Origin: Candidatus Latescibacterota bacterium
GTDB lineage: Bacteria; Latescibacterota; UBA2968
Reading direction: 5' to 3'
Assembly: GCA_965205975.1 (NCBI GenBank)
Contig: OZ242195.1
Coordinates: 5,088,001 to 5,152,000 of the forward strand
DNA: 64,000 nucleotides
Positions within the stretch are counted from its first letter, which is position 1, and each line of letters starts with the position of its first letter. Positions 3,821 to 27,464 of this stretch are shown piece by piece. The notes beneath the pieces are model-generated. The model had not been told where the DNA came from. It worked only from the letters and a program-made list of their open reading frames with translations, and searched no databases. Both the position numbers and the translations under genes were made by a program.

Positions 3821-6481
3821 ATGTCCAAAAAGCTCTGGTTTTACGCCTCCGGATTTTTCGCCGGAGTTGGCATGTGCCTGGCGGGTCTGGTCACACAGGC
3901 TCAGGCTCAATGGCCCGGCAATGCCAGAATCTCGATGTCCCGGGGTCAAATCGGTCACACGCTCCACAATCCGGGCATGACGGGAAAGAAAGATAACACG
4001 ACAAAGCTGGCACAGTCTTCGTTTTCGTATCCTCAGGGCCGCAATATCAAGGTGTATTCGGGCGGTTCTGAGCGCGAAGGCTGGAATGCCAAGTCAAATA
4101 CAGGTGGTGAAGGCTTCTGGGTGCTTTCCAATACGGGTGGCAGCCCCCACGGTACGTATGCAGGTCCGCGTATTACGTCTTCAGACCTTGTTGGTCGTGC
4201 CCACGATATGACGCAGATGCCCGAAGCCTATGTAGGCGTTGTAGAAGATGAGAATTGGGCAATGGCGATTCGCAGAGATAGTGGTGCGGACGCGCCCAAT
4301 ATCGCGGGATCGACGGTTGCAGACCGCCTGACCAACTGGTGGCCGAGTGCTCACGGTATTTCCAGCCCAACCCCTGGGACAAATAGGGCTGTTGTTGTCT
4401 GGAACTTCCGTTTTGGTCGCTACAACAGCAATGAGCCTTTTGCCAATCGCATTGGTTCTGGAGAATTCCCGCAGTACAGTGCGCCTTCGTGGGTGGAATC
4501 GCTGTCTGAGGATGATTTTCCCGAGATGATCGGTATTCAAGAAGGCGGTTCTTCTGCCACGGGTCTGGAGTGGACGCGCAAGTGGTTTTCCACGGCACAT
4601 CCCGATCACGATGAGTATTTTGTCGTTGACAACGAAGTGGTGAACAATTCGGGTTCGACGGCTGAAGGTGTGTATATCACCTTTGCCAACCGATTCCACG
4701 CGGGTCAGGCATCGGGCTGGCGGGGTTCGACCTCGTGGAATCACGCTTTCGATTGGACGCGCGATGATTATTATCGCAATACATTGGCAGCCAATTACCT
4801 CAACGGCGTCAGCCGTGGGGATTACACCTCTGCGCTTGGCAGATCTGCTGGTTTGCAGCGCGGTGTTGATCTTGCCAATGACGGCCATTTTATGACGTAT
4901 TACCACGATGGGGACTCCGATCATATTACCAATTTGATCAATGATATAGGCGATCAGTATCGCTATGCGATTGCCAAAGAGCGCTATACTCGCGAACAGA
5001 CCTGGGTGCGCGAGGGCATGATGCAGCACGCTCAGTATTTTGGTCTGGGCACTGTGGATGCCTTCCCGCCGTTTATGCGCTATGGCGGTGTGGATGATGA
5101 GATGTATGTGGCACCGCACGACAATCCGGCTACAGGGCACGATGAGAGCATGCAACAGCCCGCTTCGGTGCTCTTCCACGGCTATCGCGGTACGAATGAT
5201 TTTGACTATCCCTCGCCAGACCGTGCGGGCGATGCTCAGATTTACGACGCGGTTGCCAATGGCGGCTATACTGCTGAAAATGACACGCCTGGGCATTACT
5301 CAACGCTGGTATCTTATGGTCCCTACACGCTGGCACCAGGTGAGAAGGCCAAAGTGGTGGTCGCCTATGTGGCGGGATTAGCAGCAGATCACGCCAAGTA
5401 TGACGATTACAAGAAGTATGCCATGCCCTTCAACCTGGGGTGGATGAACCACTACGGTGGCAGGGGATCTGAGGCTACAGAGTTGGCAGATCGCCAGCCG
5501 GATATACCATTAGGCGAAGATGTGCTGTTCGATCACTTTGAGAATGCGATTCAGTGGTATAACTGGGGTTATGATCTTCCCAACCAGCCGCCGAATACCA
5601 AGGTGGCGTGGGATTCCAACCTTCAGGGTAAGACGCAGATTCGGTGGAGTGTCTTTGGCGAAGAGGCAATGGATCCAGATTATTCTGGCGCCCAGGCACA
5701 GGATTTGCGCGGGTATCGCATCTATCGCTCGTCTGTAGAGTATCAGGGCGAGTGGGAGTATGTGACGGAGTTTTCATTCGAGGATGCGCGTGCGGGCAAT
5801 TTGCCCACGGGTGTTTCGTATGATCCTTCTCGTACGTGGACAACGGTGAAGAGCGGTTCCTGGCCAACGGGTATTCCGCTGCTGACGAATCAGTACGTTG
5901 ATGCTGGTGTGCACGGTGGTCTCAATCCCGCTGCTGGTCCTGAGATTCCCGGCACATATCTGTTTGACGATCAAAACACAAACGCAGGCTTCCCCAACTG
6001 GTATAGTGTGCGTATGTATGACTCTGGCCACGGTGATTGGAATGGCGTGAGTAGCGTTGATGTCCTTGAAGCCTCGCAGAGCACCTCTCTGGGTTCTGTG
6101 TATGGTTCTCGCACGGGTATTGTTCCCGTGGTTCCTGGTGCAGCCGTGTTTGATCGCCTCGAAGAGCAGGTTCGCGTGGTTCCCAATCCGTTCAAGGTGG
6201 ATAGCGATTTACATACGTACAACCGCCAGCAGAATATGCGGTTTACGAATCTGCCGGGTCGCTGTCAGATCGACCTTTACGATGTGACGGGTCAGCGAAT
6301 CTGGACCTTCTACAATCAGGATCCTCTGAAGGGCGAAGTGACTTATATCCAGCTTGCCGAGAATCGTCCGTCTAACTTTGGTGAGGCGATGTTCCCTGGC
6401 ATATACTTCTGGAAAGTCACGTCTTTGATGCCGGGATCAGAAGGCGTAACACAGACCGGCACTTTCGTGATCATCAAGTAA
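3821..6481 (+). CDS. Large secreted protein (886 aa) with a T9SS-like C-terminal domain
   Basis: Signal peptide (AQAQ), YGPYTLAPGE..VVVAY segment, FN3-like GYRIYRS, C-terminal VRVVPNPF..MRFTNLPGRCQIDLYDVTG..PGIYFW, AAGGAG RBS. Confidence 0.85.
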   Translation: MSKKLWFYASGFFAGVGMCLAGLVTQAQAQWPGNARISMSRGQIGHTLHNPGMTGKKDNTTKLAQSSFSYPQGRNIKVYSGGSEREGWNAKSNTGGEGFWVLSNTGGSPHGTYAGPRITSSDLVGRAHDMTQMPEAYVGVVEDENWAMAIRRDSGADAPNIAGSTVADRLTNWWPSAHGISSPTPGTNRAVVVWNFRFGRYNSNEPFANRIGSGEFPQYSAPSWVESLSEDDFPEMIGIQEGGSSATGLEWTRKWFSTAHPDHDEYFVVDNEVVNNSGSTAEGVYITFANRFHAGQASGWRGSTSWNHAFDWTRDDYYRNTLAANYLNGVSRGDYTSALGRSAGLQRGVDLANDGHFMTYYHDGDSDHITNLINDIGDQYRYAIAKERYTREQTWVREGMMQHAQYFGLGTVDAFPPFMRYGGVDDEMYVAPHDNPATGHDESMQQPASVLFHGYRGTNDFDYPSPDRAGDAQIYDAVANGGYTAENDTPGHYSTLVSYGPYTLAPGEKAKVVVAYVAGLAADHAKYDDYKKYAMPFNLGWMNHYGGRGSEATELADRQPDIPLGEDVLFDHFENAIQWYNWGYDLPNQPPNTKVAWDSNLQGKTQIRWSVFGEEAMDPDYSGAQAQDLRGYRIYRSSVEYQGEWEYVTEFSFEDARAGNLPTGVSYDPSRTWTTVKSGSWPTGIPLLTNQYVDAGVHGGLNPAAGPEIPGTYLFDDQNTNAGFPNWYSVRMYDSGHGDWNGVSSVDVLEASQSTSLGSVYGSRTGIVPVVPGAAVFDRLEEQVRVVPNPFKVDSDLHTYNRQQNMRFTNLPGRCQIDLYDVTGQRIWTFYNQDPLKGEVTYIQLAENRPSNFGEAMFPGIYFWKVTSLMPGSEGVTQTGTFVIIK

Positions 6482-6517: not shown

Positions 6518-7534
6518 ATGTTTAAGAAAGCACTGCTCTTCGGTCTGGCTGTTGCGCTTGCCCTGCCGATGTATGCACAGGCTCAGGAAGAGCGGCCGAC
6601 TCAGGATTCATTAGGACCTTTTCCCGTGGATAGGACGCGCGTGCCTCCTGAAACGGATCTGATTAAGTATGCTCGCGTTACGACGACTTCTTATGGATTC
6701 TTGAAGCTGACGGGCAATGCGCGCTCAGCAGGTATGGGCGATGCGTATTCGTCTGTTGGCAATGATCTGTCGGCTGTGTTTTACAACCCTGCTGGCGCAA
6801 CGCAGATTGAGCGCTACGCGCTGACAGCTTCTTACCTGAAGTGGATTGTGGGGTCTTCAATGGGGACGTTTGCCATTGGTGCCAAGACGAATGTGGCGAC
6901 CTTTGCAGTCAACTTTGCGTATTTTACCACAGATGAATTTGAAGAGACCACCTCATCTCAACCCGGCGGCACGGGTCGCATGGCCACAGCAGGCGACATG
7001 GCTGTTGGTCTGACCATTGCCAAGCAGGTGACAGATAAGTTGAGTGTGGGTGGTAATCTGCGCTGGGTTCAGGAAGACCTGGATTTGCAGTCGTATTCGT
7101 CTTATGACATAGATTTTGGTACGCTCTTTTACACGGGCTTCCATTCCACGCGTCTGGGTATGTCGATGCGCAACTTGGGCGGCGACCAGGACGTGATAGG
7201 TCAGAAGGCGCGTTTCCCGATGGTATTCAACCTGTCGGGTGCTGCTGAAGTCTATGGCAATCTGGGTGATCCGCTGTCAGTCACAGTGGCAGTTGAACAG
7301 ATGTTCTTCACAGACTCGATCAACCGTTATCACTTTGGCGCGGAAGCATGGGTACAGAACATGCTGGCGTTGCGTGGTGGTTACAAGATCGGTTATGACT
7401 CCGAGTCGTGGACAGTGGGTGCTGGCTTGCGTCAGAAGTTAGGCGATCAGAGTGTGGGTGTGGATGTATCGTATTCAAGGGCTGAGGCACTTGATGAATA
7501 TCCCATTCGCGTTTCTGTTGGCGTTGGCTTCTAA
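6518..7534 (+). CDS. PorV/PorQ family outer-membrane beta-barrel protein
   Basis: FLKLTGNARSAGMGDAY..FYNPAG motif, signal peptide, C-terminal Phe. Confidence 0.88.
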   Translation: MFKKALLFGLAVALALPMYAQAQEERPTQDSLGPFPVDRTRVPPETDLIKYARVTTTSYGFLKLTGNARSAGMGDAYSSVGNDLSAVFYNPAGATQIERYALTASYLKWIVGSSMGTFAIGAKTNVATFAVNFAYFTTDEFEETTSSQPGGTGRMATAGDMAVGLTIAKQVTDKLSVGGNLRWVQEDLDLQSYSSYDIDFGTLFYTGFHSTRLGMSMRNLGGDQDVIGQKARFPMVFNLSGAAEVYGNLGDPLSVTVAVEQMFFTDSINRYHFGAEAWVQNMLALRGGYKIGYDSESWTVGAGLRQKLGDQSVGVDVSYSRAEALDEYPIRVSVGVGF

Positions 7535-7831: not shown

Positions 7832-8494
7832 ATGGGTACTTTTTCAAGAATAAGCAATGTGGTCCGCGCTGAGGTTGACGATGTTCTGAATAAGATAGAG
7901 GATCCAAAGAAGATGGTGCGGCAGATGGTTCTGGATATGGAGGATGCGCTGGATGATGCGGTGGTTGCCGTGGCACAGGCGATGGCAAGCGAGAAGTTGC
8001 TGGCGCGTCGGATTGCTCAGAAACGGGAAGAGTCGGCTTTGTGGGCGCGCAAGGCAGAGGATGCTATGGATGCTGGTGAGGAGGAATTGGCGCGCAAGGC
8101 ACTGGTTCAGAAGGTGGCGGTTGATGAAGCGGTCAATACGCTGCAGAAAGCGCGGGGGGAAGCGGAAGAGGTGACGGAGACGCTGAAGCGGAGACTCGCA
8201 GAACTGAAGGCGAAGTTGGCGTCTGCCCGCGCGCAACAAAGCACGCTGGCGATTCGCAAACAGGTGGTGGTGCAGGAGATGCGACAAGATGCGCGTGTAG
8301 AAGCTTATGATCGGTTTGTTCGAGATGTGGCGCGCGAGGAAGCGGCGGCTGAGATTTATGCGGAGATGGCAGACGATGCACAGTTGCAAGAAGAGTTTGA
8401 TCAACTGGAGCGAAAGCAGCGCGTCGAGGCTGAGATGCGGGTGTTGAAGGAGAAAGTCAAACAGAGCGCAAGCCAGAATGATGAAATGGTTTAA
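7832..8494 (+). CDS. pspA: PspA/IM30 family phage shock protein
   Basis: MGTFSRISNVVRA..IEDPKKMVRQMVLDME, W..KAEDA...GEEELARKAL, coiled coil, and a sigma54 promoter. Confidence 0.9.
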   Translation: MGTFSRISNVVRAEVDDVLNKIEDPKKMVRQMVLDMEDALDDAVVAVAQAMASEKLLARRIAQKREESALWARKAEDAMDAGEEELARKALVQKVAVDEAVNTLQKARGEAEEVTETLKRRLAELKAKLASARAQQSTLAIRKQVVVQEMRQDARVEAYDRFVRDVAREEAAAEIYAEMADDAQLQEEFDQLERKQRVEAEMRVLKEKVKQSASQNDEMV

Positions 8495-8568: not shown

Positions 8569-9561
8569 CTATGTATTGAGATCTACTTCCTTAAACATCG
8601 GTGGCAGGGAAGCACCGTCAATCGCTTTATATTCCACTGCAGTATGGGGATACGCAAAGCCGAGGCGGTCGCTATTTGCAAATGCCTCCATAATTTTTGC
8701 GACAATTTCGGTTGATATCTTTTGTCGCTCTACGGCAATTGACTGATACCGCAAGCGCATCATAACTCCCGAATCAAAAAACTCCGCGCGCACCTCGGGT
8801 TCTTTTCCCGTCTCCTCTACAATTGTTCCCGTCACTTCCCGCGCACAAGTAATCAGTGTCTTCTCCGCCAATTTGTAATCCGAATCGTAGGATATCCTTA
8901 CGGGTACCTCATCCAGAATATATTTCGTCTCTTGAGACACGGCGTAATTGATCACCATCTGATCGAATAACACCGCATTGGGAATCAAAATGCCGCGGTT
9001 AGAAGACTCTTCACCGCCAATTGTACCGCCGACCTCACCCAGCAAAACATGCGTTGGTGAAATTTCCAAAACATCGCCCCGCACCCCCTGAATAATAATG
9101 CGATCCCCAATTTTAAAAGGCCGCTTAATCATCACCATCAACCATGCGGCCACGCCCGTTACTGGCCGCTGAAGGGACCAGCCCAAAACCATACCCACAA
9201 AAGCAACCGTCAGCCCCATTGCTGCCAGAGATCCCGACATACTCACAATGACAAAAAGAATACCAACCAGCATAAACGAATACCGCCACATCGTCAAAAA
9301 CTGCCGAATTTGTGCATCCGTGCGATGATGTTCCTCCATTGCGAGAATGATCAATCTCTTCGATATCTTATAGGCAAATAGCAACACAATCAATATCACA
9401 ACCGCATATAAAATGCCGACTATGGACTCTCCCAGCGTCTCCGACATAGACAGCTTGATATTTCGCACATAATCAAATGGCCTGGCCCGCGTCGCAACTG
9501 TCTGCAATGTATCCTGCGCGGCTTGTAATGTGTCCTGCACGACCTTCAATGTATCCGACAT
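8569..9561 (-). CDS. MscS family mechanosensitive channel
   Basis: TM helices, RPFKIGDRIIIQGVRGDV, IPNAVL, FAYPH. Confidence 0.9.
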   Translation of the reverse strand: MSDTLKVVQDTLQAAQDTLQTVATRARPFDYVRNIKLSMSETLGESIVGILYAVVILIVLLFAYKISKRLIILAMEEHHRTDAQIRQFLTMWRYSFMLVGILFVIVSMSGSLAAMGLTVAFVGMVLGWSLQRPVTGVAAWLMVMIKRPFKIGDRIIIQGVRGDVLEISPTHVLLGEVGGTIGGEESSNRGILIPNAVLFDQMVINYAVSQETKYILDEVPVRISYDSDYKLAEKTLITCAREVTGTIVEETGKEPEVRAEFFDSGVMMRLRYQSIAVERQKISTEIVAKIMEAFANSDRLGFAYPHTAVEYKAIDGASLPPMFKEVDLNT

Positions 9562-9566
9562 AATCT

Positions 9567-10457
9567 TTACCCTTTCTTATTCGTTTCTTGTGATAGTGTA
9601 GCCAAAAGCGTTGGTTCCACACTCTGCATATGCAAATCTCGCTGCGGGAATGGAATCGTAATATTTCGCTCTCGAAATGCCCGGACGATTGCAAAATTTA
9701 AATCGCTAATCACAAAATACTGGCGGGGTGGATTCTCAATCCAAACCAGCAGATCAAAATTCAGAGAACTATCGCCAAAGCCCAGAAATTGCATCTGCGG
9801 CTCGGGATCGGACAAAACCTCTGGATGCGCTCGCCCCACTTCCAGCAGTGTCTCTGCGACCAGTTCCACATCAGCACCGTAAGACACACCCACAGATGCG
9901 TGAATACGTACTTTTGACCCTTGAAAGCTCCAGTTTGTGACATTTTCAGATAGAAATTTTGAATTGGGCACAATAATCGTCACATTATCCAGGGTCTCGA
10001 CCTTTGTGCTATATGCATTGACCGCCTGTACAGTGCCTTGCACGCCGCCCACCTCCACAAAATCTCCCTCCTGCACGGGGCGCTCAAATAACATAATGAG
10101 TCCGCTGATAAAATTGTGGGTAATAGTTTGCAATCCCAGACCAATCCCCACCAACAATACCGCACTAACTGCTGCCAATGTCGTCAGATTAATCCCGGTA
10201 TATTCTATGGCGATAAATACGCCGATGCACATGGTAACAATGTGCAATAGACGACAGATAGCAGACTGCGAACCCTTATTCATGTGTATCCGTTCAAACA
10301 CATTGCGCCGCAACATCCGCTGCAACAACCGCGATATACCATAAGCAATGAGGATAATCAGCGTAGCCGTCAGCAAAATGGCTGGCGTTATTTCTATTTC
10401 GCCAAAAGAAACGATTGGTTCCTCAATTACCGTGCGTAAATTATCCCAGGGATTCAT
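9567..10457 (-). CDS. MscS family mechanosensitive channel (MscK-core-like)
   Basis: GIGLGLQ..NFISGLIMLFERPVQEGD, VPNSKF...VTNWS, FGDSSLNF, IPFPQRDLH. Confidence 0.93.
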   Translation of the reverse strand: MNPWDNLRTVIEEPIVSFGEIEITPAILLTATLIILIAYGISRLLQRMLRRNVFERIHMNKGSQSAICRLLHIVTMCIGVFIAIEYTGINLTTLAAVSAVLLVGIGLGLQTITHNFISGLIMLFERPVQEGDFVEVGGVQGTVQAVNAYSTKVETLDNVTIIVPNSKFLSENVTNWSFQGSKVRIHASVGVSYGADVELVAETLLEVGRAHPEVLSDPEPQMQFLGFGDSSLNFDLLVWIENPPRQYFVISDLNFAIVRAFRERNITIPFPQRDLHMQSVEPTLLATLSQETNKKG

Positions 10458-10459
10458 AC

Positions 10460-12436
10460 TTAATCCTCCCGAACCAATACAATAAGATCATCCGATTCAC
10501 TCAGTATATACGGCTCATCACGCGTCGGATTGAGCACAACCCCGCTGTTTTGGAAGCGAATACCCAGCGCGATTTCGCCCCGACATGCCGACATTTCCTG
10601 GAGTTCTCCAAAATTCACATTTTGACCTGCTATGCCGTAATCCAAAACCCGGCGAAAGAAAATCTCTGCACCACCGACAGTAAATAACTCTTCATAAACG
10701 ACATTGATCTCTCGACGCAACGCAACCTGTGCCAGCACGTGGCTTGCAATCAGGGGCGTAATCAATACCTCGCTGTCGTAATCTTCAAACATCGCCACAT
10801 TGTCGGAATCCAGCAAATCGACCAGAATTTCTGGTTTATGCGTACCCTCATCCAGCACATTTCTCAGCACCAGATGCACCACAATCGTCCGCGCATCTGA
10901 TTCTTCCTGTGTTTCCACCCGATCACTGCCTAAAATCACCACATTGTCATACCTATCTGGCTCCATTTCTCTTAAATTTGATAGCGAAGTGGTCTCTCCT
11001 TCGCGATGGGTGATAGCCACGCGGCGCAGATCAATGCCTTTTTGTTCTATCTCTGCTTCTCTTTCCGCCAAAGGTACAAGAGACAAAACCGAGATCTCAA
11101 ACTGTTCATCAATCTGTCGGTCGAACTCTTTGAGTAATTCCACTGCTTTGTGATTCCATCCCAAAATTAAGACGCGCCGTTTGCCCTTTTCCTTAACATA
11201 GGGCATTTCCTGAAATTTACGCGATACGCGTTCTATCTGATAATTTCTCAGTGGTTCACAGTCCCGGTGATTTTCTGCCAAAAAGACCAGCCGGTCTTCT
11301 GATTCCAAAATCAGATCCTCGGGTGGATTGAGCAGGGGGTAAAATGACTCACCCTGGGGACGCACTACGCCCAGCAAAATCGCTTTGGAATACGCACCTG
11401 ATAGATCGCCAAAACGAGACCCCGTAAACTGTTTGGAGGTGTGAATATAGATCTCATTGCCAACCCCGTGCGACAAAATCTCGTGGAACACATGCGACAA
11501 TCCCGGATGACGCACATTTTGCGCCATACATCGCGTAATAAAAACATCGCTCGCCAAAATTTCTAAAATGCCTCTATATGCCCGCTTTGCCATATCCACT
11601 TTGTCGGAATCGAAAATTTCTGTCACCAGTAAAGGTAGAGTTTCTTTGGCATCCCGCTTCTCGCCCTGATTCGATATCGACATCAGTGTTTTTATAATGC
11701 GCATATCCGATTCATCCGCACTGCCATAAGCAAAATCTGCACCGGGCAAAATAATGGCACTCGCATTTTTGAAATCCACGCGCTCCAGATGTTCTATCCG
11801 CAGAGGTATCCCCGACCGAAAAGTGATCTTCTTGGGATTCCACAGAGAACCCAGTGCCCTCCGCAATTCCATTGTGCGCTCCAGGCTCACGTCTTCGGAA
11901 AGAATTACCACGTGTAATCCGCGCGCACCGAGCAGTTGTAAAAACCGACGCACGCGACCTTCGGCGCGCATCAACTCGCTGACAATTTCAGAAGTGCGAT
12001 TGGTCCATCCCAAAATCAAAATGTGATTGCGACGCACAATGGGCGTAAGCCCGCGTTCAAAATTGCGGATCGTCTGATTGAGCCACTGCGTCATGATCGC
12101 GATCAACGACCCCATAAAAAGCACGTATCCAAGCACCGTTACCACCGTTGAGATCACGCGGCGGGGAATCCCTTCGTCATCTCCCAAATAACCCGGATCG
12201 GTCAAACGCAAAAAAGCCCACCAGATGGCTGTCTCGTGATCATCAAAAGGCGCGTCCGTTTCCTGAACCAGCAAACCACCACCAATGGCGACCAGCCCGA
12301 CCAGCGAGGCGATGAACAGCAGGTGAAAGTGGACGCCCAGCAACAACAATCGCTCAACGCGAAATTTCAGATAATTTTTTATTCGCGCAAACGGGTCAGT
12401 AGTTCGCGATCGCAATTTTAAAAAAAGATTTTCCAT
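10460..12436 (-). CDS. CASTOR/POLLUX (DMI1)-like ion channel with RCK domains
   Basis: WWAFLRLTDPGYLGDD pore, HILILGW and RVLILGWN RCK motifs, ESDARTI, GAEIFF. Confidence 0.85.
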   Translation of the reverse strand: MENLFLKLRSRTTDPFARIKNYLKFRVERLLLLGVHFHLLFIASLVGLVAIGGGLLVQETDAPFDDHETAIWWAFLRLTDPGYLGDDEGIPRRVISTVVTVLGYVLFMGSLIAIMTQWLNQTIRNFERGLTPIVRRNHILILGWTNRTSEIVSELMRAEGRVRRFLQLLGARGLHVVILSEDVSLERTMELRRALGSLWNPKKITFRSGIPLRIEHLERVDFKNASAIILPGADFAYGSADESDMRIIKTLMSISNQGEKRDAKETLPLLVTEIFDSDKVDMAKRAYRGILEILASDVFITRCMAQNVRHPGLSHVFHEILSHGVGNEIYIHTSKQFTGSRFGDLSGAYSKAILLGVVRPQGESFYPLLNPPEDLILESEDRLVFLAENHRDCEPLRNYQIERVSRKFQEMPYVKEKGKRRVLILGWNHKAVELLKEFDRQIDEQFEISVLSLVPLAEREAEIEQKGIDLRRVAITHREGETTSLSNLREMEPDRYDNVVILGSDRVETQEESDARTIVVHLVLRNVLDEGTHKPEILVDLLDSDNVAMFEDYDSEVLITPLIASHVLAQVALRREINVVYEELFTVGGAEIFFRRVLDYGIAGQNVNFGELQEMSACRGEIALGIRFQNSGVVLNPTRDEPYILSESDDLIVLVRED

Positions 12437-12452
12437 ACAGCCACCTTGTCAA

Positions 12453-13286
12453 TTACTCATCAGCAACATCCGTAAAACGCACATCAGACGGTATGAGCTT
12501 GCGTCTGGACAATTCCTTTTTAATACGACTGGTAAGATCAGTGGCGAAACTGTTCTCGTAGCGCGTGTCAAATACGTACGCTTTTACCACGAGATGTGTC
12601 AGATGCGTCTCTTCAAATTTGTCCTTGACATTGACCACCACTGGCTTTTTAAGATATGCGAGCCTGGATGTAAGCACGGCTTCGCGAGCCACATCCTCAA
12701 TCTCTTTCAAGCCAGCCCGCGCTGGCAGGTATATATCTACAACGACCTGGCAATCGAGATTCCCGGCATTGGTGTTCGACACGCCAGAGGTCAGCAATGT
12801 GGAATTCGGCACGGTGACGAGAGAATCATCAATCGTCTGTAACTTCGTACTGCGCAGACCAATCGACACGACTTCGCCGTAATAAGAGCCTACGGTCACG
12901 CGATCGCCGATTTGGAAGGACCGGTCAAACAGTACAACAATACCACCAATAAGATCATTGAGAAGATCTTTCGCGGCAAGCCCAAGTGCCAGAGCGATTG
13001 ACCCCAACAGGGCGAGCAGGGTATTTTGTTCGGGTGCGATAATAACGATAGAATAATAAATCGCAACCCCGTAAATACCGATACGCAGCAGGGGCTGGAC
13101 GCGCTTGAATAGCAAGCGATGTGAAGGAAATCGGTTGGCTCCAAAATCCAACGCGAGGCGAATGAGTGTTGTCACCGCATAAGCTATCGCAATCACCAGC
13201 AGGACAGACAGTATTTTAGCGGCGTTAATGTGTAAGCCACCGCTTCCCGTGAGTTGTTCGAGAGGTGAAGTATCCATGATGCTCAA
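12453..13286 (-). CDS. MscS family mechanosensitive channel (alternative ATG start at 13277)
   Basis: GLAAKDLLNDLIGG..DRSFQIGDRV..GEVVSIGLRST..VTVPNS. Confidence 0.9.
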   Translation of the reverse strand: MSIMDTSPLEQLTGSGGLHINAAKILSVLLVIAIAYAVTTLIRLALDFGANRFPSHRLLFKRVQPLLRIGIYGVAIYYSIVIIAPEQNTLLALLGSIALALGLAAKDLLNDLIGGIVVLFDRSFQIGDRVTVGSYYGEVVSIGLRSTKLQTIDDSLVTVPNSTLLTSGVSNTNAGNLDCQVVVDIYLPARAGLKEIEDVAREAVLTSRLAYLKKPVVVNVKDKFEETHLTHLVVKAYVFDTRYENSFATDLTSRIKKELSRRKLIPSDVRFTDVADE

Positions 13287-13300
13287 ATTCCTGTTTTAGA

Positions 13301-15802
13301 TCACAAGAGGCCGCGTCCTTCCAGCATTTCCTCTACGGCTTTCAAACCAATGGGATTAATGCGAAAACGCGTCGATTCCTGATCAAACTCGAGAATATTG
13401 TCGTTCCACAGGATCTCGAGTTCCAGTCTGGTCTGGATGAGGTCTTTGTCGAGTATTGATGATAGTTCAGCGGCAGTAAGATTGTCGTGCTGTAACACCG
13501 CGATCAGAATAAATGCCTGTTCAAGCGAGAAATTGCGCACAATTCCGAGGTCAATCTCACTGACGGGATTAACCAGGAGGAGGTCGCTTTCCGAAAGCTC
13601 GAGTGACCGCAACCAATACAGGAGGGCGACAGAAATATTCTCCTCACTGATCTCCGCCAGATTTTTGAAATAGATCTGGGACAGCACTTCCTGAACAGCC
13701 GGATCTTCTGGTCGGTGCCAGCGGTGCACGCGCCGGCGCACGGTTTTTTCCAATTCCTTGTTTGTCGCGTAACGCAGGCGGTAGCCACTCTGGTTGTGAC
13801 GCTGCATCAGAAGCATTTGAAGTTCTGCAGGCTGCCAACTCTGAATCCCGACCTCAAAGTGAAATAGGCGATTCAGGGGGAGCCACAGACCGAGATAGCC
13901 GCGCGTATGCTGGTCGAGAGAAATACCCCAGAGTATGTGGTGGTTGGTACGCGCGATGAGCCAGAGCAGGTGTTGGATTGCATCCAGATCACCGATACAT
14001 TTGAAAAACAGATTGTGACACCCTTCGAGTATCACAGCCCGTCGCGGTCCTTGCAACAATTTCAGAGATAGGTCGTCAAAGCTCCCTGCATCTTCTATCT
14101 CAAGAACATTTGCCAGATAGGATACCAGTTCAGGCGCGGTCGTCATCTTGCACTCAATTGCGGACAGGGTTACGACCGAAGCGTCATCGAACAGTCGCGA
14201 GACAGCAATATTCAACAACGTCGTTTTGCCCGCACCCCGTTGTCCGAATAAAATGAAGGAGGACGTAAGACCATCTTCCCAGCGCTGAATCGCCTGTTCA
14301 ATAGTCGCCAACTCTTCATCAAATCCGACAAATAACGCCTCGTCATTCAAAGAATCAAAAGCGAAATGAACCGTGTAATCTTCTGGCAGCCCGAGATATT
14401 TGATCGACTCCAGATTGGCTTTGTCGAGTGCCAGACGGACTTCGCGCTCGGCCGGTGCCATTAAGCCCAGGCGACGCAACACGGGTTTTACGATGCCAGA
14501 GGCGGCATTGAATAGCACGATTGCCTGTACTCGGAGAAATGACAACAGGCGCAGCACTACCTGTCTGCACGCTCTCAAGACGGTTGAAGTAATCTGACGC
14601 CCGAATCGTCCGAGTTTTGCAAGATAGAACGCAATCCGACCATAACGGGCAGCGTCCTGACCGATCAGTTCCAACCGCTCCTGGTGCTCGCATTCGAGTT
14701 CCCACAGCAGCGACTCCCACGCCATTCGGGTATAGTCGTTGAGGTCCCTCAATCGATTGATCGCGCGATTGAATCCCATCTGAACATCGGGCGACAGTAC
14801 ATCGTCTCCCTGCGACAGGCCACTCTCAACTGTGTTGATCGCGTACCTGAACGTACTGAACACGCTGTCCACGCCTTCGAGCGATCCTTCAATACGGATT
14901 TTTTCGAATTGCTGGTACGCAGTATCGGCCCTGTTTTCCAGACCGCTGAAATGGGCAGAGCCAATCTGGCGTAATGGAACAAGCCGGTAGCTCGTTCGAT
15001 TTTTCCAATTCAGATCGTGTACATAACTGACCTTTTCCGGTAGATTGTCAAAAACAGAGGAGGAATTTTGGAATGCGGCCTGGTTTAATACCTCCACCTC
15101 GGCCAGATTATTGGAATTGCTCAAATCCGCACGAAGCGAGTCGAAAATGTCTTGCACGGTTTCGCGTATCTGAGGAAGTGACTCTTGCAGGGCCTGAGGA
15201 CGACGGCGTAGCTGGATTGATACATCTTGTTGTATTCTTCGCAACTGTTCAACTGTAGATCCCGTGCGCTGACGGACGGCGTGCAGGTCTTTCTCCTGCT
15301 GCACACGCACTGCCTGGCGCACCTCAGATAGTTGGCGTCGGATGTTTCCAATGGCTGCCCTGTAGCCTGTGACCTCTTCTGGAGGCTCGGCGTAGTTATG
15401 AGTGAGACTAATGAGATCGATCAATCTCGGGCAGCGCAGCAGGCGCAGAAACCGCAGATCGAACGACACGATGGAAAAGAAAAAATTCAGAATGACGATG
15501 AGATCGGCGATCTGTAGCGGACGAAGTCCAAAACGCAACCGAGCGGACAGGTGTGTTCCCCCAGCTACATGGACGGACCACATACGCGCCAGATATTCGA
15601 CAATTAGCAAACCGATAAATAGCCATTCGAACCAGTAAGAATAATAGAGAAAATAAAAATGCAGAATGTCGTTACCCGGCCACCACTCGAACCGCTGCAG
15701 ATACGCCATGAGGGTTTTCGGCCACCAGATATCGAGGCATTGAACACCCGTATTAAAGAGCACAAGAACGAGTATCGCCCAGTTGATCCGCCGGCTGAAC
15801 AA
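13301..15802 (-). CDS. Voltage-sensor-like (S1-S4) membrane domain + coiled coil + P-loop NTPase fusion; native 5' end separated by an IS4 insertion
   Basis: EYLARMW (S2), PLQIADLIVIL (S3), LRFLRLLRCPR (S4); FVGFDEEL, GQRGAGKTT Walker A, AVILEGCHNLF; no GYG pore. Confidence 0.7.
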   Translation of the reverse strand: MFSRRINWAILVLVLFNTGVQCLDIWWPKTLMAYLQRFEWWPGNDILHFYFLYYSYWFEWLFIGLLIVEYLARMWSVHVAGGTHLSARLRFGLRPLQIADLIVILNFFFSIVSFDLRFLRLLRCPRLIDLISLTHNYAEPPEEVTGYRAAIGNIRRQLSEVRQAVRVQQEKDLHAVRQRTGSTVEQLRRIQQDVSIQLRRRPQALQESLPQIRETVQDIFDSLRADLSNSNNLAEVEVLNQAAFQNSSSVFDNLPEKVSYVHDLNWKNRTSYRLVPLRQIGSAHFSGLENRADTAYQQFEKIRIEGSLEGVDSVFSTFRYAINTVESGLSQGDDVLSPDVQMGFNRAINRLRDLNDYTRMAWESLLWELECEHQERLELIGQDAARYGRIAFYLAKLGRFGRQITSTVLRACRQVVLRLLSFLRVQAIVLFNAASGIVKPVLRRLGLMAPAEREVRLALDKANLESIKYLGLPEDYTVHFAFDSLNDEALFVGFDEELATIEQAIQRWEDGLTSSFILFGQRGAGKTTLLNIAVSRLFDDASVVTLSAIECKMTTAPELVSYLANVLEIEDAGSFDDLSLKLLQGPRRAVILEGCHNLFFKCIGDLDAIQHLLWLIARTNHHILWGISLDQHTRGYLGLWLPLNRLFHFEVGIQSWQPAELQMLLMQRHNQSGYRLRYATNKELEKTVRRRVHRWHRPEDPAVQEVLSQIYFKNLAEISEENISVALLYWLRSLELSESDLLLVNPVSEIDLGIVRNFSLEQAFILIAVLQHDNLTAAELSSILDKDLIQTRLELEILWNDNILEFDQESTRFRINPIGLKAVEEMLEGRGLL

Positions 15803-15857
15803 GTCGCCAGGACCGGCGATTTCGAGAATTTCGTATGTTCGATTTTTTATTTTTTTT

Positions 15858-17060
15858 TATAGTACACGACAAAACCTAAATGGTGTTACAAAGTGGCGGA
15901 TTCCTCAGTAAACGAATGCATTTGTGGAACTGTTGGTATTGCTGGTTTATATTGAGGAGGACATACTGCAAATAGTCCAACCCATATCGGAAGAGACTTT
16001 TCTCCATGCGCCCGTGGTTTTTAACCTTCAAAGGATTTGTTTTTGCGATCCATTCGCCGATGATATGCGCCCAAGTGCAGGCGATAGCCAAAAGCGCGAT
16101 GAGTTTTTCAATGCGGTCTTGATGTATGAGGTGGGTTTCTTCCAGATTAAATCCTCGACTTTTAAGATTTGCAAAAAGGACTTCAATGCCCCAGCGTTCT
16201 TTATAGGTATCCAATGCGGCTTGACCTTGTTGGTGTTGGTTGCTGGCAAGGATGAGGTATTGATCCTTTAATCTTATTGCAGACAGATACACAGGTAGGT
16301 CATAAACGCGGCAGGGTCTTTGTAGGCTGACCTGCTGATGGCTGTGCAAATTTTCAAAGCGTTTTTTTATGGGAATCTCTCGACCTGCCCTTGAGACAAG
16401 GGCATTTTCCTTGATGCGGATGACAAAAGGGATGTCTTGTGTATGTAGCCACCTAAACCATTCTCTTCCAATAAATTCTCTGTCTGCGACGACAACGCGG
16501 ATATGAGACTTGGGAATGCGCGTAAGCACCTGTTTCATCAACTCAATGCGTTCATCACTATTGGAATTGCCTCGTTTTGGCAACAGCATCCAACAGATAG
16601 GAAAGGCGACCCCTTCATAGATTATGCCTGCGGTTAGGATGTTGATATTGAATTTTCCTAACTTCCAATTGGTGCGATCTATTGAGACTGTAAAATCGGT
16701 CTTGATGGGTAATAAGTGTAAGATCAGTCGCGTCACGGCTTCATAAGGGATGTCAAACTCAGCGAAAAAACGCTGTATCCTGCGGTAATTTGACTGCGGT
16801 TTGACCTGTCCATTTAGCGCATTGGCCAGCTTAGTGAAGTTGACCGTGCTCAGCTTGACCAACGACAAGATGAAGGCCGCTTTGAAGGTTAGGCGTGCTT
16901 TATGCCACCCAAAATGGCCTTGCAGTATAGCGCGAAGTTGTATAACTTGAGGAGACATAGACCTGTGCCTTGTTGAGATGAGAAGGTTCGTTTTCACACA
17001 TTCAAACCTAACTCTTTTTCACTCTTTGCACAGGTCTTTTATTTTTTGTCGTGTACTTTA
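15858..17060 (-). mobile_element. IS4-family insertion sequence
   Basis: Terminal inverted repeats AGTACACGACAAAA (15861-15874) and TTTTGTCGTGTACT (17044-17057); candidate 9-bp target duplication ATTTTTTTT (15849-15857 and 17061-17069). Confidence 0.88.
15876..16997 (-). CDS. IS4-family DDE transposase (alternative ATG start at 16958)
   Basis: IDRTNWK, ADREF and the YREK-type motif YKERWGIEVLFANLK. Confidence 0.93.
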   Translation of the reverse strand: MKTNLLISTRHRSMSPQVIQLRAILQGHFGWHKARLTFKAAFILSLVKLSTVNFTKLANALNGQVKPQSNYRRIQRFFAEFDIPYEAVTRLILHLLPIKTDFTVSIDRTNWKLGKFNINILTAGIIYEGVAFPICWMLLPKRGNSNSDERIELMKQVLTRIPKSHIRVVVADREFIGREWFRWLHTQDIPFVIRIKENALVSRAGREIPIKKRFENLHSHQQVSLQRPCRVYDLPVYLSAIRLKDQYLILASNQHQQGQAALDTYKERWGIEVLFANLKSRGFNLEETHLIHQDRIEKLIALLAIACTWAHIIGEWIAKTNPLKVKNHGRMEKSLFRYGLDYLQYVLLNINQQYQQFHKCIRLLRNPPLCNTI

Positions 17061-17094
17061 ATTTTTTTTATATAATCGATCATAAATTAATCCA

Positions 17095-17197
17095 CTGGAC
17101 GCCTGCTTAAAACATGCAGAGCCTGCCCCTGCATGCCTTAAGCAGGGGCGTGACGAGCGACGGTTGTCATTGCGGCATGGTGTAAGCCGCAATCCAG
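17095..17197. repeat. Palindromic repeat doublet including a TTGTCATTGCGGCATG..AGCCGCAATCCAG copy
   Basis: The copy at 17164-17197 is near-identical to 33762-33796 and to the reverse complement of 37773-37808; an adjacent hairpin CCTGCTTAA..TTAAGCAGG is present. Confidence 0.7.
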
Positions 17198-17239
17198 CCC
17201 ATCAAAAAAATATATCAGCGAATTTTTTTGACAGACCAC

Positions 17240-18199
17240 TTAGTGTGTAGCCATCTCCGTCGCCAGATGCAGAACCGCATCGCCGCGATGCACCAGAGGC
17301 GATATGGTCCGTCCGATCACGAGGCCATCTCGCGGCGCTGTCAAATTCAGGGTGCTGCTGCCAAAAGGATCGGAAATGTCACCCAATTTCTGTCGCCTTG
17401 TGACCTGCTCTCCCATTGACACATCCAACTGCAAAATGCCACTTTGCCGCGCCCGAACCCAGGTCGTGCGCGTAACTTCGACCGAGGGCGCAACATCTGG
17501 TGCGATGGGTTCTGCGAGCATGTCCAGTGCCCACATTACTCTCAAAACGCCATTCACGCCCATTTCAATCGCGCTTTCGTTGAACCGCATGGGTTCGCCC
17601 CCTTCGTACAACAAAAGCGGAATGCCTCGCCCTGTCGCTACCCGACGCAGCGATCCTGCAGGACTGGTGCTATCGACCAGCACGGGCGCGGCAAATGCCT
17701 CGGCCACGCGCCGCGTTTCCGCATCTTTCAAATTTGCGCGTATTTGGGGCAAATTTGTTCGCGGCGGTGCTGCTGTGTGCAAGTCGATTCCGTGCGTACA
17801 CCGATAGACTACTTCGTTCGAGAAGATATGCGCCAACCGCGACGCCAGAGAACCGCGCGATGATCCGGGAAAGGATCGATTCAAATCGCGCCGATCGGGC
17901 AAATAGCGCGACTCGTACACAAAGCCAAAGACATTGATAATGGGCACAGCTACCAGTGTGCCCCTCATATTCTCGACCTGTACGTTTTCCAAAACCCGCC
18001 GAATAATTTCAATCCCATTGATCTCATCGCCGTGTAGTGCTGCACCAACAAATAGCCGGGGTCCCGCTTCCCGGCCGTGTAGCACTTCCACGGGAATCGT
18101 CATCTGGGTATGCGTGTAAAGCATAGCCAGCGGAATTTCGATATTCCTGCGCGTTCCCGGCGCAACGTTTGTTCCGCTAATTTCAAATGCCTCGCGCAT
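17240..18199 (-). CDS. Succinylglutamate desuccinylase/aspartoacylase family protein (M14-like)
   Basis: AALHGDEINGIE, DLNRSFPG, IDLHT, YEGGE; adjacent to rimK. Confidence 0.92.
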   Translation of the reverse strand: MREAFEISGTNVAPGTRRNIEIPLAMLYTHTQMTIPVEVLHGREAGPRLFVGAALHGDEINGIEIIRRVLENVQVENMRGTLVAVPIINVFGFVYESRYLPDRRDLNRSFPGSSRGSLASRLAHIFSNEVVYRCTHGIDLHTAAPPRTNLPQIRANLKDAETRRVAEAFAAPVLVDSTSPAGSLRRVATGRGIPLLLYEGGEPMRFNESAIEMGVNGVLRVMWALDMLAEPIAPDVAPSVEVTRTTWVRARQSGILQLDVSMGEQVTRRQKLGDISDPFGSSTLNLTAPRDGLVIGRTISPLVHRGDAVLHLATEMATH

Positions 18200-19102
18200 C
18201 TATCCTCTCCCACGCGTGCGTGTTCTTCCACGCTTAGTGTTCTTTTCCAAAAACGCAATAATCAAGTCCGCAACATCGATATTCGTCGCTTTTTCGATCC
18301 CCTCGAGACCGGGAGAAGTATTGACTTCCATCACCAGAGGTCCGTGATTTGACCGCAAAATATCCACGCCGGCAATATTCAAGCCCATTATCTTGGCCGC
18401 GCGCACCGCTGTTGACCGTTCTTCGGGTGTAATGCGAATCATTTCAGCAGAGCCGCCGCGATGCAGATTCGACCGAAATTCTCCGGGTTCTGCCCGGCGC
18501 ATCATTGACGCCACCACGCGCCCGCCAACCACCAGACAACGAATATCCGTGCCCCCGGCTTCCTTGATAAATTCCTGTACCAGGATATTCGCGTCTAAAC
18601 CGCGAAATGCCTCGATCACACTTTCGGCCGCAGAATCCGTTTCGGCGAGCACCACGCCAATTCCCTGTGTGCCTTCCAGCAGCTTGATCACGAGCGGCGC
18701 ACCACCCACAATATTGAGCAAGCCTTCGATATCTTTTGTCGAATGGGCAAATCCAGTCACGGGCAATCCAACGCCTTCTGCCGCCAGCAATTGCAGGGAG
18801 CGCAATTTGTCGCGCGCTCTGGTAATCGCCTGCGATTCATTGGCGGGAAACACCCCCATCATTTCAAATTGTCTGACGACCGCTGTCCCGTAAAAGGTGT
18901 ACGACGCGCCAATACGCGGAATCACTGTGTCAAAATCCAGTGATTCGCCTCGAAAAATCACGGATGGTCGATGGGATGTAATATTCATATAAAGCCGCGC
19001 ATAATCCACAACGCGTGCCTCATGGCCTCTTTCTATGGCCGCTTCTTTGAGACGCCGCGTCGAATACAAGTTTGGACCTCGCGATAAAATTCCAATTTTC
19101 AT
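18200..19102 (-). CDS. rimK: RimK alpha-L-glutamate ligase (ATP-grasp)
   Basis: [48 protein letters not shown]. Confidence 0.95.
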
Positions 19103-19112
19103 ACTTATCTCC

Positions 19113-19568
19113 TTAAGTTTGGTTTTTGGCGGGATACGCCGTTCGGAATGAACGACCAGGATCTACTATAAATCGGCCTCTGAGGGCATGGCGTCCCAAC
19201 AACATCCGAAAGCCCATTTCATCTCGGCTGGTCAATGTCAGCTCAATTTCCCAATCGCGATTGTGCATTCGCATCATAGTGCGGATCACGGGACGCCTTT
19301 CTACCTTGCCATTAGAACTTCTTATCTGGCGATCTCCAATCACCTCCGCTTCGACTTCCACCGCCTGGCGAGCGGTGCGCTGTATGGGTTGAATCTCAAA
19401 ACGCACCATCCGCTTGCCTCGCCGCCGAAACCGCTTCAGATTAAATGCGTGCAATGCAGATGACCGCGCACCCGTATCGATTTTTGCCTTGATTGCTTCG
19501 ACATTGAAATCGGGCAATGCCACCCACTCGCGCCACCCTATGATCCATATCGGTTCACGCTGTGTCAC
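19113..19568 (-). CDS. RimK-associated retropepsin-like protease (RimB / 'ATP-dependent zinc protease' family)
   Basis: [36 protein letters not shown] start at 19568 with a GGAGG RBS; the ORF track starts earlier, at 19670. Confidence 0.88.
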
Positions 19569-19670
19569 AGTTCCTCCATGAATTTTACAGACGCTTTCTA
19601 CAATGAACCCCGATCTTGAATTAGTCCCTAAATAACCTGCTATGCGTCTCTCTGTCAAGCGTTTGTACAC

Positions 19671-22684: not shown

Positions 22685-22739
22685 GGCAATTCCTTTCTCC
22701 ATATTGAATGGTACCTTTTTTCCTGTCAGGCAAAATAGA

Positions 22740-22755
22740 AGCAAATCCCGTGCCA
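22740..22755 (-). promoter_or_regulatory. Sigma54 -24/-12 promoter
   Basis: Minus strand TGGCACGGGATTTGCT, a perfect consensus match. Confidence 0.88.
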
Positions 22756-22837
22756 CTCTTAGAGTCGCCCAATTTGGTGATTATTACATCGTGTTGTACG
22801 ATACCGGGACCGGAGCTTGACCATCGGAGTCGTGACT

Positions 22838-26755: not shown

Positions 26756-26785
26756 GATCGAGCGTAACTATGTTGGTTTACCTTA

Positions 26786-27073
26786 TCAAACAAGCTCAAA
26801 TTTGCGAACCCGAATGTCGCTTGTTTTTGTTTTTATTTGAGCCAGATCATAATTCATTTGCTGACGCAACCAGCTTTCTGCACTGCCACCAAAAGCCTTC
26901 GAGAGACGCACTGCCATTTCCGTGGAAATGCCATTGTGTCCGTGAATCAGTCGAGACAAACTCGTGCGGGTTACACCCAATCCTTCGGCAGCTTCTGTAA
27001 TTGACAGGCCAAGCGGCTCGAGGCATTCTTCCAGAATAAATTTACCGGGATGAGGAGGATTCTTCATGGGCAT
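26786..27073 (-). CDS. higA: HigA family antitoxin
   Basis: [50 protein letters not shown]. Confidence 0.93.
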
Positions 27074-27085
27074 GATATTCTCCTT

Positions 27086-27337
27086 CTAATGATAGTCTTC
27101 ATAATTGACATCGGCTACATCTGATTGTTCAAAGCGGAAGGTGACGCGCCAGTTTGCACGCACTGTGACGGCCCATAAGCCAGACCGATTTCCCCTGAGT
27201 GGATGTAAACGAAAACCAGGGAAATTCATATCTACTGGATTTTCGGCCACTTCGAGCCGTGCCAAAATATTTTTTAACTTACTCACATGTTCCGGATTCA
27301 CACCACGCGAGTCGTCTCTTTCATAGAGCCGTCTCAA
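27086..27337 (-). CDS. higB: HigB/RelE family toxin, N-terminus possibly frameshifted
   Basis: PGFRLHPLRG..WAVTVRANWRVTFRF..VNYEDYH. Confidence 0.85.
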   Translation of the reverse strand: MRRLYERDDSRGVNPEHVSKLKNILARLEVAENPVDMNFPGFRLHPLRGNRSGLWAVTVRANWRVTFRFEQSDVADVNYEDYH

Positions 27338-27464
27338 TCCCCGATGTCTAAAATATCAAATGCTATTCCCTAAAATTCTAAATTCTAACAGATAATATAA
27401 CACCTGTCAATGCTAATGAAACGACATAAGTTTGTGAATGTGTGTATCCTTTAATGGTATTTCC

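Follow-up and report, generated by a model that had tools for sequence, protein, structure and literature searches.

In a 64,000-nucleotide stretch of the genome of a Candidatus Latescibacterota bacterium (contig OZ242195.1, positions 5,088,001 to 5,152,000), which is called the window here, a minus-strand gene encodes the voltage-sensor domain of a voltage-gated K+ channel (Kv) without its pore, joined to a module with an AAA+ fold and a C-terminal winged helix. This fusion of a sensor and an NTPase fold is real and conserved. The conserved unit, to which it belongs, is two genes: one for the AAA+/winged-helix module and one for MscS1, a channel of the MscS family encoded directly downstream (12453..13286, minus strand, with an alternative ATG start at 13277). 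The link between the module and MscS spans at least four phyla, and it is very probable that the module and MscS1 form a functional pair. The module itself is widespread and mostly soluble, and the sensor is one among several swappable N-termini. The original prediction, made from the DNA letters, knew of no characterised fusion of a voltage sensor with an NTPase; a literature search likewise found no account of this fusion, of the module-MscS pairing or of a dedicated MscS partner with an ATPase fold (supplements and most subscription journals lay outside its scope), and the two-gene unit appears to be undescribed in print. Residues of the fusion protein are numbered in the 851-residue reading that starts at window position 15856, since the gene is split near its 5′ end by an insertion sequence (IS).

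Coupling of the module to MscS1

An MscS gene adjoins the module gene in 23 of 25 genome loci, and the other two loci end at contig edges. It is also adjacent in all 42 further loci, the best-scoring ones returned, where 39 of the proteins are full-length members of the MscS1 subtype and three are short and divergent. In metagenomes, some of whose loci duplicate earlier ones, adjacency was found in 17 of 20 loci, and the misses have 190, 400 and 920 nucleotides (nt) downstream. The MscS gene lies upstream, not downstream, of the module in some loci (L023, L106 and L127). Among 251 Bacteroidota genomes, the module is present in 52, the MscS1 type in 49 and both in 47; in these 47, the two genes are single-copy and lie no more than about 3 kb apart on one contig. 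In the two genomes with only MscS1, the gene immediately upstream encodes a divergent module (HHalign, 97% and 98%); of the five module-only loci, two were inspected, and in both a divergent MscS gene comes immediately after the module. Of the 132 genomes of the window's class, 17 have the MscS1 subtype; the sensor fusion accompanies it in 15 of them and the soluble form in two, so that every MscS1-bearing genome has the module (17/17). In the window's genus (n = 21), the fusion and MscS1 are jointly absent from 12 genomes.

The partner is a particular kind of MscS. A profile of the subtype gives 385 bits for MscS1, which is a member of the profile, versus 90 and 48 bits for two other MscS proteins encoded in the same gene run of the window. 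Conserved basic residues on the cytoplasmic part of MscS1 are R54, K211, K232 and R239. The evolutionary distances of the module and MscS1 are correlated (r 0.92), but this correlation was set aside as evidence because shared ancestry explains it. Some class genomes have a second, soluble module paralogue followed by an MscS-like protein of 172-185 residues (L046:2523-3077, L051:566-1120 and L109:8832-9347), in which most of the membrane part is absent and the cage motifs are retained. In addition, a set of MscS1-subtype proteins (P0174-P0192) has long N-terminal helical extensions behind a signal-like segment, and these extensions are probably periplasmic.

How widely are the fusion and its module distributed? 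Full-length homologues of the fusion number 27, at 36-93% identity, so the fusion that the original prediction had described from one gene is kept in its relatives. A search with just the C-terminal module gave 2289 matching clusters at E ≤0.001. The best 150 of these are mostly proteins of about 1000 residues without a predicted membrane helix, and some have about 400 residues; four among the best 150 carry a CPA Na+/H+ exchanger on the module (54 proteins were scanned against Pfam). In three loci the module stands behind other membrane regions and an MscS gene follows: an APC permease in L105:4701-9716 (1672 residues), a CPA exchanger in L104:6058-10551 (1498 residues) and an unassigned six-helix region in L107:5355-8576 (1074 residues). 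Residues ~250-485 of the fusion match the second helical repeat of the soluble ~1000-residue form (HHalign, 96%) better than the first repeat (59%); thus, by this alignment, the sensor takes the position that the first repeat has in the soluble form. Within the window's phylum, 15 of 168 genomes have the sensor form, and these 15 all belong to the window's class (the gene is whole in 13 and cut by contig ends in two). Records labelled Gemmatimonadota or Planctomycetota by NCBI belong to the window's class, and therefore the spread of the sensor form is narrower than the labels imply. Beyond the class, it was found in three records from Entotheonella, in one that carries the label Acidobacteriota and in four metagenome contigs, of which three are nearly identical. 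In NCBIfam, neither the fusion nor its relatives received a name, ESM Atlas returned just unnamed or AAA-labelled clusters, mostly from Bacteroidota, and none of the curated models of Pfam, NCBIfam and PADLOC matched the AAA+ module of the fusion at cut-off.

The voltage-sensor domain

Residues 1-152 (15401..15856, minus strand) form a pore-less Kv-type voltage-sensor domain with segments S0-S4, as judged from profile, fold and co-linearity with bacterial Kv channels of six transmembrane helices (6TM). A profile of the fusion family matches the sensor of KCNQ1 (6mie) with E 2.2e-14, and the structure model of the sensor matches KCNQ4 (7vnp) with Z 11.9 and a root-mean-square deviation (rmsd) of 2.9 over 124 residues; the mean predicted local distance difference test score (pLDDT) of the model is 79. 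Pfam PF00520 scores 24.1 bits, marginally below the 25-bit cut-off. The sensor is co-linear with bacterial Kv proteins of 270-310 residues until the last turn of S4, where the Kv proteins enter their pore, and identity to these proteins reaches 57% for the least-diverged fusions (same phylum) and 37% for the window protein. An S5-P-S6 pore with TxGYG was not found in the window fusion, while it is present in 9 of 9 Kv controls; among 32 fusions, the GYG pattern matches three times, always within the lid region of the AAA+ fold. The window fusion has E77, E87, R91, D118 and the S4 arginines R135, R138, R141 and R144. The prediction of a Kv-type S1-S4 without a TxGYG pore thus stands in profile, model and residues alike. 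The same genome has, outside the window, a complete Kv-like channel of 280 residues with a TVGYG pore (G000:C1:271807-272229).

In the sensor rows of the family, the S3 Asp and the S2 Arg are present in 33 of 33 and the second S2 Glu in 31 of 33. The basic residues of S4 vary: six in nine rows, five in six, four in ten and three in eight. A Phe in S2, the charge-transfer centre, is a feature of Kv sensors; 19 of the 33 fusions have it, as does each of the nine Kv controls; all six S4 basics together with this Phe were found in 9 of 33 fusions and 8 of 9 controls. In the window's lineage an Asp occupies the fifth S4 basic position, and in the genus rows (n = 12) R2 and R3 are kept in 12, R4 in 11 and R1 in 10. 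In a tree of sensor sequences, the 33 fusions split from the nine Kv proteins (100/100), and many fusion branches exceed the Kv branches in length; the tree is unrooted with Kv from one phylum, and hence the number of origins and the donor cannot be read from it. Two known kinds of protein with a voltage sensor were considered. Hv1 proton channels have an Asp in mid-S1 as the selectivity filter; this residue is Asn in 30 of the 33 rows, Ser or Gly in three and Asp in none, and an Hv1-like channel was rejected. A voltage-sensing phosphatase (VSP) was also rejected, as a helical stalk and an AAA+ fold follow S4 instead of a PTEN-like phosphatase.

The gene is under purifying selection. By simple pairwise counts on seven genus sequences, the ratio of nonsynonymous to synonymous substitution (dN/dS) is 0.18 for the whole fusion gene, 0.22 for the sensor, 0.24 for S4, 0.15 for the AAA core, 0.071 for the winged helix and 0.084 for MscS1, and each of nine domain-level values, S0-S1 excepted, is below 0.3.

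Does the sensor still sense? A working voltage input is possible but falls somewhat short of being probable for the family as a whole, and is rather doubtful for the window's genus. The main rival explanation is that the sensor has become a mere membrane anchor for the MscS1 partner, its fold kept, its gating residues drifting and no voltage signal passed on. A majority of family members do without a membrane domain or have an unrelated one, the bridging S2 Arg and S3 Asp that hold the structure are invariant while S4 and the charge-transfer Phe vary by lineage, and the long fusion branches fit such a drift. Nevertheless, the full Kv set persists in those nine rows, R1 to R4 are largely kept in the genus, and the S4 ratio indicates constraint. 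Moreover, Hv1 and VSP work with three or four S4 basics. The anchor explanation is therefore regarded as improbable, though it deserves to be taken seriously.

The AAA+-fold module and its proposed action on MscS1

Behind the sensor, residues 165-405 (14642..15364, minus strand) are modelled as an elongated helical bundle with a β-hairpin (pLDDT 85.7); the coiled coil of the original prediction is thus a long helical region of another form. A fold search with this stalk gave no significant match, the best hits being a designed bundle (Z 14.6) and dynamin stalks (Z 10.8), in the chance range for helical bundles. A basic amphipathic helix follows at residues 396-466 (14459..14671, minus strand), recognised from charge and hydrophobic moment; residues 413-466 have a net charge of +10 and a moment of up to 0.64, and this helix may sit on the inner membrane surface.

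The AAA+-fold core and lid comprise residues 486-765 (13562..14401, minus strand), with Walker A at 14222-14245 and Walker B at 14021-14041. The region matches Cdc6 with Z 15.7 (rmsd 3.5, 245 residues aligned) and TnsC with Z 15.1; the match to Orc1/Cdc6 2qby (Z 15.2) runs across residues 494-849, and Foldseek returned RuvB and ORC. Walker A (GxxGxGK[T/S]) is intact in the window protein, and its Lys is present in 32 of 34 sensor-type members and 89 of 131 others, being substituted in the remaining 42. Walker B reads hhhhE-G, not hhhhDE. Its first position is E in 30 of 34 sensor-type and 127 of 131 other members, the second is mostly G, D or N, with E in 1 of 34 and 8 of 131, and a DE pair was found in none of them; the position of the catalytic glutamate is G in 26 of 34 sensor-type members. 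Residue 742, which presumably matches the sensor-2 position of Cdc6, is Arg in none of the 34 sensor-type rows, while R686 is invariant (165/165) and could serve. The Walker A P-loop domain that had been predicted is therefore borne out by motif and fold, and so is an NTPase fold, but the name ATPase is doubtful. Judging from the motifs, nucleotide binding by the module is reasonably likely and motor-like hydrolysis improbable, and the non-canonical Walker B favours a switch or scaffold over a motor.

The protein ends with an acidic winged-helix domain, residues 766-851 and the stop codon (13301..13561, minus strand), which is its most constrained part. It has a MarR-type fold (Z 12.0, rmsd 1.6, 76 residues aligned), so that the possible winged helix-turn-helix of the original prediction was correctly seen. 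Its net charge is -8 in the window protein and -3 to -11 across all 16 sensor-type rows, and the recognition helix is also acidic (-2 to -5).

Does the module touch MscS1? A complex of two MscS1 chains and fusion residues 477-851 was predicted from paired alignments of 61 rows. It scored 0.55, versus 0.00 for the best of three controls, with a contact agreement between runs of at least 97% and a partner pLDDT of at least 76. In a calibration that fits this prediction only roughly, 116 of 157 solved complexes and 2 of 215 mismatches scored at or above the pass mark. Assembly with a channel, as originally envisaged, thus passes in modelling for the pair of MscS1 and module, although at a weak grade. 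It is likely that the module binds MscS1 directly, a judgement of this strength because the complex score was combined with the gene coupling as a prior. The acidic winged helix and the basic residues of the MscS1 cage make a candidate interface.

These observations suggest the following model. The fusion protein and MscS1 would be a two-gene unit, a dedicated MscS channel with its auxiliary subunit. The AAA+-fold/winged-helix module would bind MscS1 from the cytoplasm and, working not as a motor but as a scaffold or a switch with bound nucleotide, would set the opening of the channel, which releases ions or osmolytes. In this lineage, the S0-S4 of a 6TM K+ channel would have been joined to the module at the end of S4, replacing the first helical repeat. 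The sensor would tether the subunit to the membrane beside the channel and, in members with an intact S4 at least, may relay changes of membrane potential through the helical stalk to the module. Taken as a whole, a dedicated MscS1 with an auxiliary fusion subunit whose sensor passes on voltage is the best explanation at hand, and I consider the chances of it being right to be roughly even. A bolder form can be offered only tentatively from the sequences: a mechanosensitive channel would be put under voltage control in trans, with a pore-less sensor on a separate subunit moving the stalk and a nucleotide-binding AAA+/winged-helix clamp on the MscS cage, so that tension, voltage and energy state converge on a single pore, and in other phyla the clamp would take its inputs from antiporters or permeases.

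Several points weigh against the model. The complex prediction is a weak pass, as scores of 0.60 or below hold 18 of the 157 solved complexes together with both passing mismatches, and no interface was returned. The genomes counted are related, and the counts overstate their independence. The unit is dispensable, being present in 9 of 21 genus genomes, and two of these nine assemblies carry differing IS insertions in the sensor region. As for the sensor, Leu84 replaces the charge-transfer-centre Phe in the window protein and in all 12 genus rows, only three S4 basics remain in 8 of 33 sensor rows, and dN/dS of S0-S1 is 0.57, a value that comes from few synonymous changes. Finally, no fusion of MscS1 with the module or with the sensor was found among 19 long MscS1 forms, which is weak evidence.

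Other roles for the module were also weighed. As in STAND defence proteins, the NTPase might sense infection or depolarisation and use MscS1 as the effector pore of a cell-death system. The STAND folds do match (Avs3, Z 13.4), and the patchy distribution and recurring IS disruptions would suit defence. On the other hand, PADLOC gave no match for the window proteins and one weak match among 10 proteins scanned, the protein ends at the winged helix without sensor repeats or an effector domain beyond, the neighbours handle ions (Trk/Ktr, CPA, MgtE and APC), and the gene pair is fixed and single-copy in 47 Bacteroidota genomes, which makes this role very unlikely. A role as an active AAA+ chaperone, by which MscS1 heptamers would be assembled, recycled or removed, seems even a little less credible; the AAA+ fold with Walker A is there and strict gene coupling suits a dedicated assembly factor equally, but the family lacks the Walker B DE pair, the Walker A Lys is replaced in almost a third of the non-sensor members, and the sensor-type members lack Arg at the presumed sensor-2 position, for which the invariant R686 could substitute. 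A membrane-tethered transcription regulator, whose winged helix would bind DNA upstream of the channel genes, is highly improbable, since the resemblance to MarR/ArsR folds and the AAA+/winged-helix layout shared with DNA-binding Cdc6 and TnsC are set against a winged helix and recognition helix that are acidic in 16 of 16 sensor-type rows and a coupling that follows one channel subtype and not promoter position, with MscS upstream in some loci.

The locus and its separable channel genes

The unit belongs to a run of five co-oriented open reading frames (ORFs) on the minus strand, at 13301-15802, 12453-13286, 10460-12436, 9567-10457 and 8569-9561, with gaps of 14, 16, 2 and 5 nt, in agreement with the tight packing (2-16 bp) described originally. 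The Pfam assignments are, in order, Ion_trans/AAA-like (both below cut-off), MscS, CASTOR/RCK, MscS and MscS, and the nearest named records to the window proteins are Candidatus Latescibacterota genomes with 82-92% protein identity. The three MscS genes are indeed different paralogues, as had been said: PF00924 scores 78.5, 80.1 and 38.7 bits (cut-off 20.2), each has the MS_channel β-domain downstream of its membrane helices, and they share 19-28% pairwise identity. A scan for promoters and terminators gave a result no better than chance. In two RNA runs of one study, low-depth contigs of relatives span the five genes and none runs over the IS; the runs have no silent control and do not show transcription.

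The first gene had been placed up to 17083. This coordinate is its start codon, but an IS4-family element, unmentioned in the original prediction, splits the gene. The frame of the fusion is open to 15856, and the 5′ stub (17061..17083, minus strand), consisting of the start codon and the first 7-8 codons, lies past the IS; its translation matches the N-terminus of the intact homologues of 856 residues, whose N-terminus resembles the stub plus the remainder. The element (15857..17061, minus strand) has a DDE_Tnp_1 transposase at 15876-16997 (PF01609, 61.9 bits), terminal inverted repeats of 24 nt at 15857-15880 and 17038-17061 that are 88% complementary, and an A-rich target duplication of about 9 nt. 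The family label is presumed from PF01609. The window's genome has one copy, and eight copies are among the matches listed at 90-91% in G072. In both sequencing runs examined (X1 and X3), contigs with an IS-free joint 15848-17061 skip 15849-17060; therefore an intact fusion allele exists in these samples and the insertion is polymorphic. The depth of the joint contig is 96.8 in X1, versus 67-75 for the four longest flanking pieces, and 33.6 in X3, versus 21-34, while contigs of the element itself reach about 2.5 times the depth. Because several organisms contribute to each contig depth, no allele frequency follows from these values; the assembly may derive from these two runs. A second joint in X1 (window 15857-17239, depth 12.5) skips 1381 nt and is probably from a related strain with a shorter spacer between AstE gene and fusion gene. 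In another genus genome (G083, L008:8352-9884), an unrelated IS with a DUF772 transposase lies about 220 nt into the fusion gene, in the sensor region. An Entotheonella record has a frame break in the AAA domain (L019:11814-11854), which may be an assembly error.

The third gene (10460..12436, minus strand) encodes a CASTOR/POLLUX-like protein with a two-helix pore and tandem RCK domains. PF06241 scores 70.7 bits (cut-off 26.7), LjCASTOR (6o6j) is matched with E 2.9e-39, and Castor_Poll_mid and the tandem RCK follow a pore without TVGYG, so the RCK-gated CASTOR/POLLUX-like pore had been identified properly. Its want of a voltage sensor was also seen correctly, but this is normal and no part is missing: CASTOR channels have a pore and RCK domains, are gated by Ca2+ through RCK and have no voltage sensor, according to the part of the source available (PMC6697748). 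The CASTOR-like protein of the window is an ordinary uncharacterised bacterial homologue and not half a channel. MscS2 (9567..10457, minus strand) is nearest to the MscK core and accompanies the CASTOR-like gene within the genus, and MscS3 (8569..9561, minus strand) is an accessory gene.

Could the five genes work together as a single system, in which, for instance, the CASTOR-like pore is gated in trans by the pore-less sensor? The genes are tightly packed in the window, CASTOR occurs in 13 of 15 class genomes with the sensor fusion, and in L009-L012 it lies within about 5 kb of the fusion. However, it lies there on the opposite strand, and it also occurs in 12 of the 117 other class genomes (one a fragment). 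Among the 21 genus genomes, nine have the fusion and MscS1, eight have CASTOR and MscS2 without either, one has fragments and three lack all of these genes. Three of the genomes with the fusion (G072, G083 and G084) have no MscS3 at the locus. In G086, the last 90 nt or so of MscS1 are still matched, and this points to loss of the genes by deletion. In five fusion genomes that are more distant or incomplete, the search revealed no long CASTOR gene; PF06241 is absent from two (G163 and G170) and confined to ORFs of 347-383 residues in three (G171, G623 and G624). The Ca2+/RCK gating described above likewise speaks against a borrowed sensor. As an obligate unit, the five-gene model is largely refuted, and it is highly improbable as an account of the locus; a split sensor/CASTOR channel was rejected because each part is kept without the other. 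The looser regional link between CASTOR and the fusion is real. Thus, of a sensor ATPase that regulates or assembles with both MscS and CASTOR, and of their shared neighbourhood, the constant coupling of module and MscS1 stands, while CASTOR, MscS2 and MscS3 are separable.

Other genes recur around the locus. A fourth MscS-superfamily gene at 21065-22756 (minus strand), of the conserved-TM-helix (transmembrane) type, encodes 563 residues above the cut-off of NCBIfam NF033912 and is presumably CmpX-like; genes of this type lie upstream of the fusion in five genus loci. Directly upstream of the fusion gene is a tight cluster of Zn_protease (PF05618), RimK and AstE/AspA genes (17240-19670, minus strand), also found near the pair in L010 and L012 and absent at the locus in L001, L002, L006 and L008; the literature search found nothing tying it to mechanosensitive channels. 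At 24572-28736 (plus strand), a 5′-nucleotidase-like protein of 727 residues and a TLC-like membrane protein resembling nucleotide transporters are encoded. The nucleotidase-like gene is near the pair or beside CASTOR in L001, L002 and L008-L012, hinting at a larger island that connects nucleotides and ion channels, and in L010-L012 an HTH_17 and GspE/PilB-like ATPase gene (L010:11881-13326, minus strand) lies between the MscS and nucleotidase-like genes. A PspA/IM30-family gene (7832-8494, plus strand) is convergent with the channel genes and near the locus in seven genus loci. Farther away are a secreted-looking protein of 886 residues without a Pfam match (3821-6481, plus strand) and then a PorV-like β-barrel gene (6518-7534, plus strand).

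Comparison with known systems

MscS channels are regarded as self-sufficient valves. If the two-gene unit works as proposed, a dedicated partner subunit would be an added regulatory layer in bacterial osmotic and ion control, and its module is present in about a fifth of the sampled Bacteroidota genomes, with further occurrences in several phyla besides. In its sensor-bearing version, the unit would give prokaryotes a voltage sensor that works on another protein, alongside the eukaryotic VSP and SLC9C1, and it makes testable a standing question, namely which bacterial proteins read the membrane potential and for what purpose.

The sensor has the same co-linear S0-S4 as prokaryotic 6TM Kv-like "ion transporter" channels and KCNQ (Kv7; PF00520; 6mie and 7vnp). 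Unlike these, the fusion has no S5-pore-S6, its S4 continues into a soluble stalk, and the window copy has Leu for Phe and four S4 basics versus six. A voltage sensor coupled to an effector other than its own pore is known from VSP (Ci-VSP/TPTE) and SLC9C1/sNHE, as the accessible part of the source describes (PMC10651576). Those proteins are eukaryotic and have a phosphatase or an exchanger, whereas the fusion carries an AAA+-fold module that apparently acts on a separate channel. The module shares its AAA+ core, lid, winged helix and intact Walker A with ORC1/Cdc6, TnsC/MuB, RuvB and STAND NTPases; its identity to these is 10-17%, and it differs in the Walker B without DE, the acidic winged helix, the membrane anchoring and the coupling to MscS. 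The CASTOR-like neighbour has the same tandem RCK gating ring as CASTOR/POLLUX/DMI1 (6o6j and 7vm8) and MthK, with an MthK-like pore region lacking the K+ signature, and two hydrophobic helices versus the four predicted in plant CASTOR in the available part of PMC6697748. The nearest published partner of an MscS cage found is FtsZ, which binds the cage of E. coli MscS and is not a dedicated subunit, as far as the available part of that report goes (PMC4440785). MscS1 has the three membrane helices, β-domain and α/β cage of the MscS family (E. coli MscS, MscK and YnaI; Thermoanaerobacter tengcongensis MscS, 3t9n), and within that family it forms a subtype of its own, which has basic residues conserved in the cytoplasmic part and a partner gene that stays the same.

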